A stretch of 58,627 nt of DNA, filler included, from Thelocarpon superellum (lineage: Eukaryota): NCBI GenBank assembly GCA_026025795.1. It is 2 parts of 2 records of this genome, joined end to end, with 100 filler letters (N's around TTAATTAATTAA, not from the genome) between each part and the next. Parts side by side here need not be neighbours in the genome. Positions count along the whole stretch, not along the records: positions 29,400 to 58,627 come from JAPEUG010000224.1; 1 more part is not named here. One strand, given 5' to 3'. The translations under genes were made by a program, and so were the position numbers. The notes beneath the pieces were generated by a model. It searched no databases, was not told the origin of the DNA, and saw only the letters and a program-made list of their open reading frames with translations. Shown in pieces: positions 29,400 to 57,263 of this stretch. Each line of letters opens with the position of its first letter. Positions within the stretch are counted from its first letter, which is position 1.

Positions 29400-32300
29400 T
29401 TGCCGTATCGTAGTAACGGCGTGTGATCCGCCAACGAGACGAGCGAGAGCGCATCGATGGGCGTGAGTGGGCTCATTCTCACTTTCACCCGCGTCCTTTC
29501 CATTTCACCCTCGCTATTTGTGGTACGAGTGGAGGTGGTCGAGTGCAACGACGTGTAGATGATGTATTCGGGTAGGGCCGATTTAGAGGAGGGCGTGTGG
29601 GAGTGAGCGAGCACAGACGACGGGTGGATATATACCGCCTTATCCTCCCCCCTGGTCATCGTGGATGGGAATAGAGGAACGTAGGGCATGTTTGTCGCTT
29701 TCATCTTCTTCTTTCCACCTCCACCTGCTGCTGCTGCAGAAGTCTCTGTCGAGGAGGCGGCCGTCGGGAGCAAGTCCCATCTAATGGCGACCTGGTCGAC
29801 GAAGCCACTCGCGATGACAAATTTGAGATATGCGACCTGCTTGGATGACGGGGCGGGTAGTGTGAGTCGAAAGGCGCCGTTGAGGAGGACGTCGTACTTG
29901 GGGTCAGCGCGGAGGAGACGGTGCAGTTGTGCGCGGAGGAGCTGTGTTTCGCGCATGGCTTTGGGACGGAGGAAGTGGGCGGTGCAGAAATCGTCCGGGG
30001 TGGTGCTTGCCGCGTGTCCGAGGACTGCGCAGAGGAGCTTGAGCCCGTCGCTGGACCTGTCGAGTGATGAGAGCCGATGTTGCGCTGCGTTGTAGGCTTT
30101 TCGTCTTGCAGTTCGCGCGTCGTCCTCGAGGTGTTGCGCGTGTGTGTAGATCTGTGATTCGGTGGACGGTGCAGGGGCGGATAGATGGAGATGGCCTTCT
30201 GGGATGAACACGTCCGGGATGGATAGGGCGGCTACGATCGCGATGATATAGGGCAGGCAGTTTTGTTCGTGACCCGTGAGCAGAATCTTGGCGAATCGCG
30301 GGGACAGGGGGAGGTTGGACATGCGTCGCCCAAGGTCCGTCACGACGTGTGCTGGTGTCAGGGCTCCGAGATAGGTGAGGAGCTGAGTTGTTAGACAGGG
30401 GAATCGAAGGAGACATTGGGAATTTACCTTCTGCGCCTTGATCAACCGCTGTTGATCTGGTGGCGTCGGAAAGGGGAATTTGTCGATGATTCCTGGCACA
30501 TTCATCGCGGAAAGTTGTAACACCACCCCTGGATGATCAGTTTGGTCCGATCTGTTTAAAAGACGCACGTACCCTCCATTGGCGTTCTTAATATCTCTGG
30601 GATGGCATATTCTGCAAAGTCCCGCTCATACACCGCCGACGAATACAATCGATAGCAATGTCCAGGTCCCGTTCGACCGGCGCGTCCCGCTCGTTGCTTC
30701 GCACTGGCCTTGCTGATCCAATCCACCTCGAAACTCTGCACTCCCGTCACATCGTCGTACTTTCGTTGCTTGGCCCGTCCACTGTCAAACACGTATCGAA
30801 TTCCCGGAATCGTCAGACTCGTCTCGGCAATGTTCGTGGCCAGCACCACCAAACGTGATCCTTCCGGTGGGCTCTCAAATACCCGTAGTTGCTCTTTGGT
30901 TGGAAGGAGAGAGTAGAGTGGCAAGACATGCATCGGCGTATCCGGGGCGTCTGCTGGGGGCGAGTCGTCCATATCAAAGTCATCTTCGTCGTCGTCAATC
31001 TCGAGCATATCCGAGCCGGAGTCATCGTCGTCTGCATCAGACTGCTCTAGATCCGAGTTCACCTCCATATCCTCCGTCTCCATCGGAGCTTCGTCCGCCG
31101 AGATCCGTACTGGCGGTCGTGCTCGTGTATTTCGCTCCGCCAGTCCCGTCAACGTCTTGGCTAGCGAGAACGTTTTTTCGAATCGTCTCGATAGTTGAGT
31201 AATCTCGTTCTGCCCCGTGAGAAAGATCAAGATGCCACCGGGCGGAAGTCGTCGATGTCCCCGTGACACCTTAAGGTACATCTCCTCGAGATATTCTCGT
31301 TTAGTCTTTCGTGCCCAATGCATAGTCACGGAGTGCTGTCGTCCTTCGGCTTGGATGAGAGGTGGTGGCGAGGAGAACAGGGCCGTGTTCTGGGTGAAAT
31401 CAGACACCTTGAGCGTGGCCGACATGATGATGAGTCTCAGCGGAGACACCCTCGGATCTTCTCGGCTCAGCTCCTCCCTCAATCGAACAATTCGACTCAT
31501 CATGCCAATCAGAATATCGGTATCTTTCGTTCGCTCATGTACCTCGTCGATGACAATGGCCGAGTACTTGCCCAGTGTGATGTCTTCTGATGCTTCTCGG
31601 AGAAGTATGCCGTCCGTCATGAACTTGATGACCGTCTTGTCACTGACTGTAGCCTCGAATCGAATCTGCCATCGTAAGTCTCCACCGGATTAACAGGGTG
31701 ATGGATACACGCCTTGTATGCCACCTCGGCAGATGCCCCTCCCAATTCGTTGCCCACGCGCTTCGCCATACTGACAGCAGCCACACGTCGTGGTTGCGTG
31801 ACGCCAATCATGCCCGGCGTAGGACCGTCTTTACTCCCATAGCCAGCCTCATAGAGGAACTGCGGCACTTGTGTCGTTTTTCCACTCCCCGTCGCACCCC
31901 AGATGACAACGACGGGGTTATTGTGGACCGCCTCCATAATCTTCTGTTCTTCCGCCACGACAGGCAAGGCTAGACGTGCTTCCATCGCCTCCGCTGTCCT
32001 CTGCACCTGTCGGCTGTACGCTTTGCGTGTGGTGTTGGTGACTTGTAACTCTGGCGGTAGCGGATCTTCTTCGACTCGGGGGGTAAATGTGAGAGCGGCG
32101 TGATTGGTGACTGTTTCGGCATTTGCGCTGGGTTGAAAGCCCAAGGCTTCGTTGAGCTGCTTATTTGCCCATGCCTTGAATGCAGAGGAACGCTGTTGTC
32201 TCGAGCCATCGTCATCTGGCGATTCAGAGTCGCTAGATGAATCTGGTTCGTCGGAGGACTGGGAAGCCGTCTCATCGAGCGAAGGCTCGTCCTGGTCGTC

Positions 32301-49569: not shown

Positions 49570-50919
49570 TTAGGGGATTGGGCCGATACGGTGTATGTAC
49601 ACTTTGCCACGACATTCCCTCTCAAACCCCTGCCGTGCCTTTGCACTTTGAAACACCCACTGCACAGCACGTTTCCACTCGCCACCAATGCACACCATCA
49701 GAAGTGCTCTCTCCTTTATCAACTCTGGGCCCTTGAGCTTTGTGAACTTGTTGTTGATGCCCGATGCAACGTGACCAACGAGAACATCTGAACTCTCCAG
49801 CTCCTGCAGCTCAGGTGGGAATTCTTTGATCTTTCGACTAGCCCAGATAAGCTTTTTCCAGTCATCGCCAAACCAGACTTCAGCGATCTTGAGAGTGGCG
49901 AGGAAGCTGTCCGGCACAAAGACTTGCAGAATGGCAGCCGGCTCAAAGTCCTTTCTGGACATGGCAAATCGAGCGTATCGTTCTGCTGTCTCCTTTTGTG
50001 GTGTCCAGTAGGTACGGCGAATTGGACCACAGAAATCTCCAGGACTCATGGAGATCGCATAGAGATCAATCTTTTGCGTCGCTATGTCGTAAAAACTTGT
50101 GGCGCCCGATAATGTGCCTGCTCTCCAAAGGGTGGTATGTCCGGGAAGGCTGAGTGGTGTCTCGACTGTTGTCGCAACAGCAGGGGCGGACGGGGTGGCC
50201 GAGGATGTGGGCATGGACACACCAGAATCGTCTCCGGCTTGAGGTGGCGTGGCAGGGGTTGCCAAGGACGACGATTGCGAGAATGATGCGGCTGGCTTGC
50301 GACGCTTCGCTCTCTCGCGGATGCTGTGCATCGTCGCGGTTCCGTCACGGATGCGCTCTGGCATGTCCAGAAGGAAACTGTATTTGTCGCCCATGGTATC
50401 AAGAAGCCAGAACTTGCAGGACTGGGTGAACCGGATCTCCTCATATTCTGGGTTTAGGATTGCATCCTGAAGGGTCTGGTTGATTCCCAGCCCATCCATG
50501 CACGCACGCCAGTCATCGGACTCGGTGTAGGCATCCTCGACCTTGGACCAGGTCAATTGGAATTCTGCCACATAGTAGAAATCTTTGAGTTGATCATCGT
50601 CCGGGACTTCGGTGAACCACTGATAAAGCTCGGCAGCTTTGGCTGCGGTAAAACCAAGCCATTCGTAGGTGGTGGCACTCTCAATGTGCGTCGGGATCTC
50701 GATCGACTCGACTTCTTTGCCGGCGAACGTCACCCTGGAAATGGCAGAAGTGGTGGATGCACCTGAGGATGAGGACGAAGACCGCGATGTGTCCGAGGTG
50801 GGAGGTGTCGTGAGAACGGTGGAAATTTTGCGTTTGTTGTTTGTCGCTTCGGACAGCAGGCCCTCGCGTTCGAGGAAGCGGGAATCTTCCGGGGCAATGA
50901 TAGGCTCTGGGCTATCCAT
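49570..50919 (-). CDS. Hypothetical 449-aa protein with a C-terminal DUF3990-like (putative ADP-ribosyltransferase fold) domain
   Basis: Uninterrupted ORF. A 54-nt 5'UTR intron (50975-50922, GTAAGC..ACTAAT..TAG) ends 2 nt before the ATG. Motif series TLWRAG, DFCG..TYWTPQKETAERYA, WKKLIWASR, DVLVGHVA, QWVFQS. Confidence 0.7.
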   Translation of the reverse strand: MDSPEPIIAPEDSRFLEREGLLSEATNNKRKISTVLTTPPTSDTSRSSSSSSGASTTSAISRVTFAGKEVESIEIPTHIESATTYEWLGFTAAKAAELYQWFTEVPDDDQLKDFYYVAEFQLTWSKVEDAYTESDDWRACMDGLGINQTLQDAILNPEYEEIRFTQSCKFWLLDTMGDKYSFLLDMPERIRDGTATMHSIRERAKRRKPAASFSQSSSLATPATPPQAGDDSGVSMPTSSATPSAPAVATTVETPLSLPGHTTLWRAGTLSGATSFYDIATQKIDLYAISMSPGDFCGPIRRTYWTPQKETAERYARFAMSRKDFEPAAILQVFVPDSFLATLKIAEVWFGDDWKKLIWASRKIKEFPPELQELESSDVLVGHVASGINNKFTKLKGPELIKERALLMVCIGGEWKRAVQWVFQSAKARQGFERECRGKVYIHRIGPIP

Positions 50920-52238
50920 GGCTAAACCTCGCATTAGTCTCACTTGATAAAGTTTCGCCAAGTACTGGAGCTTACTGTGAGGAGATGTCAGGTGAGATCG
51001 CCCTCAATACTTGTACGTGCTGGCGTCTTCTCGTGCTGACAAGGCTGAAGGTCTTTCGAAGGGAAAATGGTGTTGATAGTCTTGGTGGTGGCAGCGGCAG
51101 CGTCGAGTGAGAGATGACGAAGAAAGGTTGTGGGCCGCTCAGCGCTGGGCCTTTCAGGTCGCTTGGTAGGTGAGACGGTCGTTTTCAACAGGGTGTAGAC
51201 CCTAAGACTCAGGGCTGAGTCATCACGCCAACGCTCTAGAACTACCGAGGTATCTAGCACGCGAGTGACAAAAAAAAGCGAGAATGCCACACCAGTTCTC
51301 GCTGTAGTTTTGACCACTGTGGCCCTTGTTACGACGGCTACGCAGCAACCAGCAACGCAGTGATTGCAATCATAATTAGCTAGATAGAAATTTCTAATGC
51401 CCCAGCCATTCTGCCGTTCACAGTAAGTACATATCTTTGCTCTGTGGAGGTTCGGGTCGTGGTTTTCAGAACTGCACCCAAACTGGTTTAGCATTCTTGC
51501 TTTTTGTGTCCCTCGCGTGCTAGGTAGAGCGACAACGTCTGGGCGAGGTGAGGGTGAGGGGCGGACGTTTCTACCTTCTATTAACCTAGATACACGCTGT
51601 GAGGGCCACTCCTGCTACCTGCTGTACCCCGTACGTGTACCGTGGAGTGTACTGGTGTAGTAACTTACACTAATACAGTGTACGAGTACTTTCGTACCTC
51701 CCCAAAAAGCCCGCGCATTATTGTCGTTGAGGGCGTTGCTGACGGCGCTCCATGAGATGGTAACTTAGGCTATAACTTCTAGCGACAAGTGTAAGCCCGG
51801 GTCGTACTTTCAATCCCGCTCAACATATAAGACGCCACCACTCGTCTGACAGGTCGATGTCTCACCTCCGGAATTGTGGAGTTGAAACACCATGCGTGCA
51901 GTTCATGCAAAACAATGCGACCCGCGATTGGTGGCACGTCGTCTGCTGAGCCTCCGAGCCTCAATGTCCAGAGACACAGGCCTTGTGGCAGACCTCGCCA
52001 CCGGTCCTATAAGTCCGTTCGCATACCCTCCCGCTCATAGCGATCCTTCGGGCATTCGCACACTACAATTGTAGTACAGAACTCCACTCTCTCCCCTCTA
52101 GACGATTTATACCTCAACTGTTCCTTTCACATCCCGCAGTGCATCGTCCCTAACTGGTAGGCTCCAGATGACCATCTCCAGCCAGCTGAAAGCAACTAGC
52201 CATCTGCAATCCGCAGTGCACAATCGCAATATACAAAG

Positions 52239-54651: not shown

Positions 54652-55453
54652 GGTGGTGGATCTGTCCTGCCTCTGCAATGTAGCACGACCAGCGTCAAAC
54701 GTCACAGACCATCAGAGGGACAGAGAGAGAGGGAGGAGACGGGCGCAATGGAGATGATATGGATATCTATAAACATGGCCACACACGGGCCATGCACACG
54801 ACCCACAACGTCTAGCTGTGGGGTGCAGGAGACTGGCTGTGAGACCCAGACGGGCTGGCCCCGCTACGGAGGATATACCACTCTAGTGGTAGTCGATCGT
54901 CAGGAGTTATCATGCGACAGCAATGTAGCGGTCATATGACGCCCCATAACGCCCCTAGTGGTGGCTCTACTGACATTGCTTACTAACGCTGCATACGGTG
55001 CGCCTACCGCGGCTGCACTCTCCTTCGTTAGTGAGGTCTCCAGCGGATGTACAGCTGCTCATCGAGTTGACGAGACTGTAGGATCCACGCGAGTCAGAGA
55101 CCCAAGGTGCCCAAGAACTTGTCATGTTTCTCAACTTGACGAGTTTCTGGGTTGACGGAGCCTTGCAGCCTGCCGAGGGCGGAGCATCTCGAAGCTGGTG
55201 CGCAGAGATGGCGAATTAGAAACTCGTTCTTCTTCCTCATGGTACGAGTAGCGCCTTTTCCCTCGGGCGAAATAATTGAAGTCGTCTGGGTCTACCTTCT
55301 GCTGCCACAGCTGCCTGCCGGGTAACCGTGGTTTTCGCAGTGTGCGATGTCAGCGTCCGAACATTAAAATCCGGCTGCTGTGCTATCTAACACGTACGGT
55401 TCCCTCTGGACCGTCTGGAGACTTCTCAATGCCAAGCATTCCTCGGTGCACCT

Positions 55454-56782
55454 TCAGCGTTCACACTGGATAGTCTTAGTACTGGACAGCCTGCTAGGCT
55501 GACCCCACCGAAATCGAATCTCCGCCCCGCTGAAAGCCAAGAGGATCTTCTGGACGAGATCGCGAAAGGCAAGACAGTTGTTGCATGGCGGCTTGCTGAT
55601 GAAGACGATGACCCTCCGTGCAGGTTGTTGAGGTTGGATGTCGGACAGGCCAGCCAACGATCCGTCCGTGTTGCTCCCCAGACAAGAAAAGGTGTGATGG
55701 TCAAGGTACCACGCAATCAGCTGCTTCTCCACATGATTCGCCCCATGTCTTCCGTCCTGACCGTTGTCTTTGAAGGTCCGTGGCAGATCATGGCTGATCC
55801 ACTCGCTGATCTTCAGTACTCGGTCGGTCCAGTACGCCCCGTTGATGACCGAGACATCTTGAGTGTCGCTCCATCCACTGATGGCGCTGACGAGCGGAAA
55901 GGCAGCACCGCGAAGGAGAACCGCCACCGCTCGTCTCGTGTCTTCCGGGGGATAATCCATGCTATTGAAGAAGAAACGACAGGCTTGGTAGTTATCTGGA
56001 CCAAAGGGGCCAAAAATGGTGCGCGCCTTGTTGCACTGGCCCGTTAACTGCAGCGTGCCTGGTACCATCACCATGTGGCCAGTCGGCGCTCTTCGCTGGA
56101 CTGGTTTCCTTCTCGCTCCGGACTGAGATGCGGAAGTATGGGTCATTGCTACAGCCTTGGGCAACTCGTCGGCATCGATCACCACAGGAAACGTTGAGCT
56201 GATCAGGGGTGTCGCGGTGTAATCACTGATGTGGTTAAGGGCATCTTCACGAGACAACAGCACGTGGACCTGTTCCGGCTTCGGCGTTTTAAGAATCACC
56301 AGCGTCGACATCAACGACGCGTCTTTGTTGCGAATAAATCTGTCGAGGTTTCCGGGCCGCTGCAGGATCTTGGAAAGTGTGGAGGTTTGCACGACAAAGG
56401 CATGGGGCTGGAAGACAAGGATCTCGTCGCGCCTGTCGTCGAGATTGGGATCTACTGATTCTCCCAGCTCCACCGCATTATCCCCAGCCTCCAGGATCAG
56501 ACCGGTGACGTCAACCAGAGGCTGTGCTGACGGCTGAATGCCCACGGTCCGAAACAGCCCACGGCTCCGGTCGACTTCATACGATAATTCGAGCGTCGTG
56601 TTGTGGACGGGAAAGCGAATGGAGTACGAGTCCCCGATGCATTTCGATGATCGAGTGTTAAGTTCTCCATACTTGAGGCCGAGAAACTCGTGGGTGTGTA
56701 GCTGCTGGCAGAAGGGGCAGAAGACATCGACGTTCCTTTGGTCCCACGACACCACGACTGCGAAAGGAATGTGGGGATTCAT
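55454..56782 (-). CDS. 442-aa protein with an N-terminal CPFC/His Zn-binding module and a C-terminal SsdA/DYW-type zinc deaminase domain
   Basis: Single long ORF; CPFCQQLHTH (CPFC at 56708-56719), ISGWS (SGW at 55871-55879), HVEKQL (55718-55735), PPCNNC (55574-55591). Confidence 0.78.
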   Translation of the reverse strand: MNPHIPFAVVVSWDQRNVDVFCPFCQQLHTHEFLGLKYGELNTRSSKCIGDSYSIRFPVHNTTLELSYEVDRSRGLFRTVGIQPSAQPLVDVTGLILEAGDNAVELGESVDPNLDDRRDEILVFQPHAFVVQTSTLSKILQRPGNLDRFIRNKDASLMSTLVILKTPKPEQVHVLLSREDALNHISDYTATPLISSTFPVVIDADELPKAVAMTHTSASQSGARRKPVQRRAPTGHMVMVPGTLQLTGQCNKARTIFGPFGPDNYQACRFFFNSMDYPPEDTRRAVAVLLRGAAFPLVSAISGWSDTQDVSVINGAYWTDRVLKISEWISHDLPRTFKDNGQDGRHGANHVEKQLIAWYLDHHTFSCLGSNTDGSLAGLSDIQPQQPARRVIVFISKPPCNNCLAFRDLVQKILLAFSGAEIRFRWGQPSRLSSTKTIQCER

Positions 56783-57263
56783 TCTGCCAGCCGCTTCAGG
56801 CTATGAAGATTACAGGGAACAGAGGAGGAAAAACAGAAAGCAGAGAACTGGAGAGGCAAGAGGTAGAACGAGCCTTGACCGAAATCAGGTCAGAGCAATT
56901 CGAAATTCGTCGTTGGGGAATTTTAGGTCAAGTTCACGACTTGCCTCCCATCCTTTCGACCGCCAGGCGCATCCACCCGCGGCCTTCCTTCGAGCGGATT
57001 CATCGTCTGTTCGTATCACCGTCGGTGGGGGAACGGCTGGTTTCATTCGATTCCTATCAATCATTCTCCGTTACTCTACTCACCGCCCATGGCTCTTTCA
57101 CGAGTCCCAACTTATCGGGTGTGATAATGCTTACCTAAGCAAGTGCCTTTCTCCTCTCAGCTTCCCCGTGGGCGGCGCAGCGAGCATGGGGATGTACCTG
57201 CACAGTCGAGCCATTCTGCTACTTCCGGGCCAGGCGTGGGTCTGACATCTGCGACGCCGACGA

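Follow-up and report, generated by a model that had tools for sequence, protein, structure and literature searches.

An SsdA-like deaminase gene in the ascomycete Thelocarpon superellum, probably descended from bacterial polymorphic toxins

Positions 55454 to 56782 of the DNA studied here hold a fungal gene with the active-site motifs of a bacterial DNA-mutating toxin. The window, by which we mean the whole stretch analysed, is 58,627 nucleotides of the Thelocarpon superellum assembly GCA_026025795.1, in two parts joined by 100 filler letters; the gene lies in the second part (positions 29,400 to 58,627, JAPEUG010000224.1). We find it probable that this is an intact resident gene of a lichen-allied ascomycete, belonging to a Pezizomycotina family that joins an N-terminal module (N-module), ankyrin repeats and an SsdA-like deaminase domain, and that the family comes from the deaminases of bacterial polymorphic toxins. 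Sequence profiles, a comparison of profile with profile and structural alignment all upheld the original prediction, an SsdA/DYW-type zinc deaminase domain in a fungal gene.

A zinc deaminase domain of the SsdA type

A deaminase fold with its zinc site is almost certainly present. The features that carry this conclusion are as follows (pLDDT, predicted local distance difference test).

55496 to 56011, minus strand: SsdA-like zinc deaminase domain of the BaDTF2/DYW-like clade, residues 258-429 (Pfam SsdA_C, VIA-align, Foldseek and pLDDT)
55871 to 55879, minus strand: S302-G303-W304, the SGW motif marking the SsdA/BaDTF2 branch (S, G and W in 98, 99 and 88 of 102 relatives)
55727 to 55735, minus strand: H350-V351-E352, zinc-binding His and catalytic Glu opening helix 2 (101 of 102 relatives have H, and as many have E)
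55574 to 55588, minus strand: P399-C400-N-N-C403, two zinc-binding Cys opening helix 3 (both present in all 96 occupied rows)
55457 to 55495, minus strand: C-terminal tail, residues 430-442, of low confidence (pLDDT <50 over 432-442)

The active-site set is complete as predicted: H350-V-E352 continues as K-Q-L, P399-C-N-N-C403 begins 46 residues after E352, and the motifs said to precede them are all in place, namely, AVLLRG (286-292), FP (295-296), SAISGWS (299-305) and GRHGAN (344-349). SGW, HVE and PCNNC can be read by hand in the plus-strand letters at the positions listed. The Pfam model SsdA_C (PF24120) matches residues 299-356 at 58.6 bits against a cutoff of 27 (E 9.7e-16, model positions 1-56 of 56), and this match, together with an hhalign comparison of the fungal and bacterial profiles (probability 99.4%, E 8.6e-22), bears out the proposed affinity to the SsdA clade. 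Neither DYW_deaminase (PF14432) nor PPR gives a Pfam match at E<=10, and APOBEC_N reaches 15.7 bits, under its cutoff of 25. The second-zinc CxC and the C-terminal DYW are absent, and the protein ends in ...KTIQCER.

A family hidden Markov model (HMM) built without the Thelocarpon protein scores it at 241 bits, with 95.7 bits on residues 3-195 and 143.3 bits on residues 268-413. A single-sequence phmmer search of PDB missed SsdA and gave a chance match only (E 0.86). Since a full-length family profile was swamped by ankyrin proteins, the profile used against PDB was remade from the deaminase part only (A2, the Thelocarpon domain plus 29 short relatives); its top match was SsdA (7jtu_A, E 3.5e-12), in an alignment that runs through SGW, GH.L, D.G..G...HAEKQ and C.DC. 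The gap between the zinc-binding His and the first zinc-binding Cys is 49 residues here, 19-20 in four bacterial relatives and 67 in the family median; in SsdA, H346 and C367 leave 20 residues between them. Neither the domain nor the substrate loop is unusual for the family in net charge.

In an AlphaFold2 model built on a 103-row family alignment (mean pLDDT 72.5, predicted template modelling score 0.64), the C-terminal domain has the deaminase fold, with SsdA nearest to it, and pLDDT is 87-98 over most of residues 281-430 and 77-78 in the insert. H350/E352 open the helix 351-363, the two Cys open the helix 401-417, and the sheet has its four core strands, with the fifth not modelled. Three SsdA chains lead the Foldseek results and are the sole matches at E<=0.001 (E 3.7e-5 to 1.4e-4, with 9c63_A at 3.7e-5); the next entry stands at E 0.067. 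VIA-align superposes model residues 258-429 on SsdA (7jtu_A) with Z 13.0 and a root mean square deviation of 3.1 Å over 130 of 151 residues, followed by the OTP86 DYW domain (Z 10.2-10.3), PPR-DYW (Z 9.9), APOBEC3H and DddB (Z 7.9) and DddA (Z 7.2). Z was at least 5 in 139 of 1000 re-aligned chains, and the best 50 rows (Z 5.7-13.0) are all deaminases.

Family, ancestry and domain architecture

An exhaustive HMMER search of 1.84 billion representatives, clustered at 50% identity, yielded 402 clusters at E<=1e-3, of which 127 reached E<=1e-10; only the Thelocarpon protein itself reached 1e-30. Named members come from Xylographa, Sclerophora, Pyricularia, Cladophialophora, Varicellaria, Coniochaeta, Fusarium, Aspergillus, Microdochium and Venturia, and relatives are already labelled SsdA_C or 'DYW family of nucleic acid deaminases-domain-containing protein' in databases. 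We scanned 48 of the 149 hits listed, the top 39 plus 9 chosen for odd length or N-terminal matches. SsdA_C was found in all 48 and a Pfam ankyrin domain in 39, where the repeats sit between an unannotated N-terminal region and the deaminase, so the ankyrin-bearing fungal relatives mentioned with the original prediction do exist. With local HMMs over 168 stored proteins, the commonest layout is N-module, ankyrin and deaminase (103 proteins), followed by ankyrin and deaminase (22), N-module and deaminase (18, the Thelocarpon protein included), deaminase only (17), N-module and ankyrin (7) and N-module only (1). The spacer between the two domains is 185 residues long in the Thelocarpon protein and 7-148 residues in the other 17 proteins of its layout. 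H, E, C and C are kept in 144 of 159 fungal domains, and 131 of them keep S-G-W/Y/F as well.

Trees of these 159 fungal and 4 bacterial deaminase domains, made with FastTree and IQ-TREE, place all of the fungal domains on one side of the split from the bacterial ones, with the Thelocarpon domain nested deep among them. It lies inside clades dominated by the N-module-ankyrin-deaminase layout (FastTree support 0.85-0.93; IQ-TREE approximate likelihood ratio test [aLRT] values of 92.8, 87.4 and 82.4). No bacterial donor can be named, because the tree contains only four bacterial sequences. The sister group (aLRT 86.3) consists of P0077, P0126 and P0131, which have H-V-E-K and P-C-x-x-C and in which neither N-module nor ankyrin could be detected; one of the three has Arg where the Thelocarpon protein has residue 284. 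All three carry unannotated extensions on both sides of the deaminase.

Decay of single domains is seen elsewhere in the family. Two relatives from Xylographa (P0002 and P0151) have H-A-G in place of H-A-E. P0154, which stands for 20 member sequences, has the N-module and ankyrin and ends before the deaminase. In the lineage of these three proteins the deaminase decays and the N-module and ankyrin persist, the mirror image of the Thelocarpon protein. The best-scoring relative, which belongs to this lineage, has N-G-R for S-G-W besides H-A-G for H-A-E, and because of these replacements it is probably inactive.

In a prokaryote-only genome collection, relatives were found at five loci, with 24-26% identity over the domain. 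Two of the five loci were scanned for neighbours, and in both an Imm5 immunity gene directly follows the toxin domain. These are L001:2389-3995 and L003:2899-4040 (a betaproteobacterium and an Oscillatoria metagenome-assembled genome), each with SsdA_C at the end of the open reading frame (ORF) and Imm5 within ~30 bases. Toxin domain and immunity gene in the bacterial relatives form the classic pair of polymorphic-toxin systems. An ascomycete DYW-like branch was described by Iyer, Zhang, Rogozin and Aravind (2011; PMC3239186) as an independent transfer from bacteria, fused to ankyrin and with a large strand 3-helix 3 insert. Accounts of the family, including where it came from and its fusion to ankyrin, thus date back to 2011, and the Thelocarpon protein is a divergent, ankyrin-poor addition to it. 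The novelty of the locus was overrated at first: the family was published, a Pfam model exists, and relatives are named.

The part of the protein ahead of the deaminase domain comprises the following features.

56528 to 56782, minus strand: family-specific N-terminal module, residues 1-85, all-beta with 7 strands (conservation and pLDDT)
56639 to 56719, minus strand: candidate metal ligands C22, C25, H29, H31 and C48 (Cys/His pattern)
56399 to 56527, minus strand: low-confidence linker, residues 86-128 (pLDDT <50 over 86-123 and 126-128)
56198 to 56386, minus strand: decayed ankyrin remnant, residues 133-195, in short helix pairs (ankyrin-region HMM; pLDDT 67-82)
56012 to 56197, minus strand: spacer, residues 196-257, with no family match and a helix at 248-257 (pLDDT <50 over 196-254)
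56090 to 56113, minus strand: basic cluster RRKPVQRR, residues 224-231, in the disordered spacer (scan of the coding sequence)

The separate N-terminal module that had been noticed is indeed there, as C22-P-F-C25-QQL-H29-T-H31 plus C48. W13, C22, P23, C25, H29, H31, R44, C48, Y53, P58 and D71 are invariant in the 13 rows of one alignment (A3) and at least 95% conserved in the family alignment (A1), and pLDDT over residues 1-80 is 79-96 in the full model and 75-94 in a stand-alone model. Within the reach of a profile search of longer proteins in which 8000 candidates were scored, the module appears confined to this deaminase family: it was found in 25 proteins, 17 with SsdA_C (16 of these also with ankyrin), 5 with ankyrin only and 3 without a Pfam domain. 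Against PDB sequences, its profile found the eL42 zinc ribbon alone, at a nonsignificant E of 0.021. Foldseek gave no match to the stand-alone module at E<=0.001 (best Kti11p, E 1.0), and VIA-align against 48,161 chains gave none with Z of at least 5 (best Z 3.2); the small zinc-binding proteins Kti11, DESR1, Dph4 and ZitP score Z 2.3-2.5, which is not significant. From its Cys/His pattern, a putative zinc-binding adaptor would be a reasonable guess.

Ankyrin repeats had been reported as not evident, which agrees with the lack of a Pfam Ank hit in the protein and with the remnant score that it gets from the family's ankyrin-region HMM. Built without the Thelocarpon protein, this HMM gives 8.7 bits (E 8.7e-5) on residues 133-195, about one repeat, where 500 shuffles reached 5.1 bits at most and the family as a whole has a median of 163 bits; positions 247-350 of the family HMM are unmatched. 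The median identity to relatives in the middle region is 0.17, against 0.38 for the family, and only 1 of 102 relatives is lower. For the N-module it is 0.32, equal to the family value, and for the deaminase it is slightly low (0.31 against 0.36). Among the relatives, the medians for N-module, deaminase and middle/ankyrin region (0.32, 0.36 and 0.38) show no hypervariability of the ankyrin part. Ankyrin-less members are scattered in the tree, from which we infer that ankyrin loss is secondary, here as elsewhere, and recurrent; because it recurs, missing repeats do not bar the protein from family membership. The basic cluster in the spacer could, at a guess, be a nuclear localization signal.

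The gene, its surroundings and its constraint

The gene is complete in the window.

55454 to 56782, minus strand: complete intronless coding sequence of 442 codons plus a TGA stop (55454-55456), from the ORF call and colinear alignment with relatives

It begins with ATG, and there is an in-frame stop 6 codons 5' of this start. Relatives align end to end, and a motif scan of the coding sequence for fungal intron signals found 0 candidate introns; the single-exon reading therefore holds, in line with the earlier claim of no intron. As had been noted, the protein probably has no signal peptide: the hydrophobic residues 6-13 are a conserved beta-strand of the N-module whose equivalent lies 30-40 residues from the N terminus in relatives. 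No transmembrane stretch was found in a scan of the protein.

The neighbours are ordinary eukaryotic genes (Abhydrolase_3, MED6, DUF3684/Sacsin, Trs120, Bystin, DEAH helicase and others), and codon usage tracks theirs (r = 0.78). A protein 100% identical to that of the DUF3684 neighbour is recorded at NCBI from a metagenome-assembled genome of Thelocarpon, and the copy in a congener is 68% identical. The window contains no Imm5-like gene (best tblastn E 0.76) and no paralogue by tblastn or by a six-frame scan with three family HMMs. Beyond the gene itself, the latter gave a partial 16-bit N-module match at 51007-51138 on the minus strand, which we treat as chance because it is without the CPxC..HxH core. 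No direct repeats surround the gene, the inverted pairs are two weak ones only, and there are no signs of a mobile element. Window scans found no Rfam family and no tRNA and give no pointer to a partner for the deaminase gene. NCBIfam gave a 12.5-bit chance match only and PADLOC no match; a word-indexed homologue search at near length recovered the Thelocarpon protein alone; and a feature search of a protein atlas gave no usable match for the whole protein and matches all scoring <0.9 for residues 1-100. Three further open frames in the window are probably lineage-specific fungal genes; Pfam gives no match for the first at E<=1e-3 or for the other two at E<=1e-5.

49573 to 51003, minus strand: open frame of 477 residues
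24406 to 26229, plus strand: open frame of 608 residues
20680 to 21843, plus strand: open frame of 388 residues

Purifying selection acts on the gene. Where 90% or more of the relatives have the same residue in an alignment column, the Thelocarpon protein has it too in all 10 such columns of the N-module, in 16 of the 18 of the deaminase and in only 3 of the 7 of the middle region; the two deaminase changes are K284R and A351V. Such retention would be hard to get otherwise on so long a branch, which argues for selection on both end domains. The terminal branch measures 1.39 against a family median of 0.68 (3 of 102 are longer), and in a second tree 1.04 against 0.44 (6 of 158 longer). Pieces of the gene differing at 0-5 positions each also occur in contigs of public runs labelled moss metagenome. 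Contigs of three public runs (X1-X3) give 13 variant sites, 9 synonymous and 4 nonsynonymous; with 11 transitions and 2 transversions among them, the expectation would be ~68% nonsynonymous (P = 0.006). Relaxed protein constraint alone fails to explain how these sites cluster, since nine of them are synonymous, and the patch that holds them (56036-56423) may be a recombination or haplotype tract. The same 390-base patch contains all 8 differences of the one X1 contig that spans 55302-56900.

Activity, function and comparison with known systems

Whether the enzyme works is less certain than that it folds. We lean slightly towards an active polynucleotide cytosine deaminase, because the catalytic set and SGW are intact, and several observations weigh against this or against the wider reading of a working family member. 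According to Yin et al. (PMC12494967), SsdA needs K289, S300, W302, H332, Y334, R336, Y342 and F343, and T290 stacks on the target base; alanine mutants of K289, H332, Y334, R336 and Y342 lost all or nearly all activity, and F343A almost all. With residues mapped by sequence alignment only, plus a by-eye reading of SsdA in the supplement of PMC11789416, K289/T290 correspond to R284/A285, H332 to T336, Y334 to K338 (beside a private one-residue insertion, F337), R336 to N340, Y342 to H346 and F343 to G347. None of these seven deviating states occurs in 85 of 102 aligned relatives. The last beta-strand of the bacterial toxins also has no counterpart in the model, the SsdA alignment ending at chain residue 392. 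GC content at third codon positions is 0.66, compared to 0.81-0.82 in housekeeping neighbours. All 13 variant sites fall within codons 120-249 and so say nothing direct on the deaminase domain. No relative more than 50% identical is on record, no same-genus relative is found among the 20 relatives carrying an organism name, and we found no bench study of any fungal member in the literature, the list of a 175-enzyme screen (bioRxiv 10.1101/2023.06.29.547047) not being covered.

The strand and pocket differences may in part be family traits. The bacterial DPxxTRIFxPDG segment is unmatched in a further alignment (A4), and its counterpart is missing in most fungal members too, which suggests that the C-terminal hairpin of the fungal proteins is without its final beta-strand. 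After CxxC, most fungal members have ~24 residues, the bacterial relatives 35-42 and the Thelocarpon protein 39. Ten of 102 relatives also have A285, nine of them with a full catalytic set, and the fungal family is variable at the H332, Y334 and R336 positions; for these reasons the rules of SsdA may not carry over. H-V-E for H-A-E is common to the Thelocarpon protein and its sister clade, and since it and Arg284 recur there, they look like subclade traits and not decay.

If active, the protein would be an intracellular zinc-dependent enzyme converting C to U in a single-stranded polynucleotide, with no choice made here between single-stranded DNA (ssDNA) and RNA. The flipped-out base would lie between H350 and a beta-1 residue (A285; SsdA has Thr), with SGW and the 330-349 loop giving the strand its shape, and the N-module, with the ankyrin repeats of relatives, may target or restrain the enzyme. 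The weakest step is the role. We prefer one in genetic conflict (against viruses or transposons, or in the killing of non-self), which toxin ancestry, patchy distribution and fast divergence favour; it is drawn by analogy only and to that extent counts against the reading as a whole. Iyer et al. proposed that the ankyrin-fused versions of ascomycetes edit organellar mRNA, and that another fungal deaminase clade serves in mutagenesis like repeat-induced point mutation, in heterokaryon incompatibility or in defence against cytoplasmic elements (PMC3239186).

The pocket is also what an alternative would build on, in which fold, zinc site and N-module are kept for a noncatalytic or altered role (nucleic acid binding, a decoy, a different substrate) and SsdA-type ssDNA deamination is gone. 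The seven rare states at positions where mutation kills SsdA, the long branch, the modular decay in P0002, P0151 and P0154 and the GC content below that of housekeeping neighbours all speak for it. We nevertheless consider it unlikely, given that H, E, C, C and SGW are all retained, that conserved deaminase columns show conservative substitutions (K to R, T to A, A to V), and that the A285 relatives, the sister clade and the family's own variability speak against decay. More doubtful still is that the protein and its sister clade (H-V-E, ankyrin lost or decayed, a rebuilt substrate loop) form an SsdA-like lineage that prefers a new substrate, for example RNA, structured DNA or modified cytosine, conceivably an APOBEC-like innate mutator acting on mycoviruses, transposons or invading nuclei, with the N-module as a new zinc-binding targeting domain.

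An RNA editor, converting C to U in cytosolic, viral or organellar RNA in the manner of plant PPR-DYW proteins, seems to us about as unlikely as the noncatalytic or altered role. DYW is the second-best structural match (OTP86, and a PPR-DYW-RNA complex at Z 9.9), the ssDNA-stacking residues of SsdA are not retained, editing was suggested for the ankyrin-fused versions, and some SsdA-like and related bacterial enzymes were RNA active in the 175-enzyme screen. The strand 2-helix 2 insertion, however, carries SGW and not the PG box, and it is SGW that separates the DNA-targeting BaDTF2 from RNA-editing DYW proteins, where the PG box stands (de Moraes et al., PMC7901873; also PMC12494967). DYW_deaminase, the second-zinc CxC and the C-terminal DYW are all missing, as is a PPR or other RNA recognition tract, and the RNA activity of SsdA itself is merely residual (PMC7901873). 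The N terminus, with 1 basic and 2 acidic residues among its first 25, looks unlike a mitochondrial presequence. Finally, bacterial relatives at 24-26% identity might suggest a contaminant or a very recent toxin transfer not integrated into fungal biology. This is extremely unlikely: eukaryote-only genes such as MED6 flank the gene on one contig, its codon usage fits theirs, the fungal-specific insert and N-module are present, the domain sits deep among the fungal ones, and neither an Imm5-like gene nor flanking repeats were found.

The resident, SsdA-like family member that we favour can be set beside four known systems. The first is SsdA, a type VI secretion toxin of Pseudomonas syringae that deaminates cytosine in ssDNA (BaDTF2; PDB 7JTU, 9C63 and 9C64); it has the same fold and is the best structural match. 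Both proteins have H-x-E-K-Q, C-x-x-C, SGW, G-H-x-L, D-x-G-x-x-G and a K/R-T/A-V-A strand, and neither has DYW-specific features. In contrast to SsdA, the Thelocarpon protein is the intracellular product of a eukaryotic gene, Pfam finds neither PAAR nor a secretion part in it, and no Imm5/SsdAI-type immunity gene lies nearby; this is why we regard it as a eukaryotic offshoot and not as a strict BaDTF2 toxin. It is also longer by ~29 residues from the zinc His to the first zinc Cys, lacks the last beta-strand and differs at the substrate contacts, whereas SsdA is without the N-terminal Cys/His module and the ankyrin remnant. By full-length homology it is a member of the ascomycete ankyrin-fused DYW-like deaminases, with which it has the N-module, the core and the strand 3-helix 3 insert in common, and from which it differs in its remnant of an ankyrin region, its H-V-E and its long branch. 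The plant PPR-DYW editors (OTP86, 7O4E and 7O4F; synthetic PPR-DYW, 9KFX) come second in structure (Z 9.9-10.3) and have a PG box, a second-zinc H..CxC, a DYW terminus and a PPR tract that are absent here. AID/APOBEC proteins are a functional analogy, as zinc-dependent polynucleotide cytosine deaminases of eukaryotic defence and editing: the general fold matches at Z 5.7-7.9, the APOBEC_N score is below cutoff, and they belong to another division of the superfamily, helix-4 (PMC3239186).

If active, fungal SsdA-like enzymes would answer in eukaryotes to a DNA-mutator toxin of bacteria, run by the cell on itself, which raises how a fungus tolerates such an enzyme without an immunity protein and what its target is (viruses, transposons, non-self nuclei or RNA editing). 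Because N-module and catalytic core are kept while the ankyrin part decays, the protein offers a natural dissection of the architecture. The gene itself opens no new question; its family, at 402 clusters, is an unexplored pool of eukaryotic SsdA-like enzymes and of natural variants of the SsdA pocket, a pocket that already serves compact base editors and footprinting.

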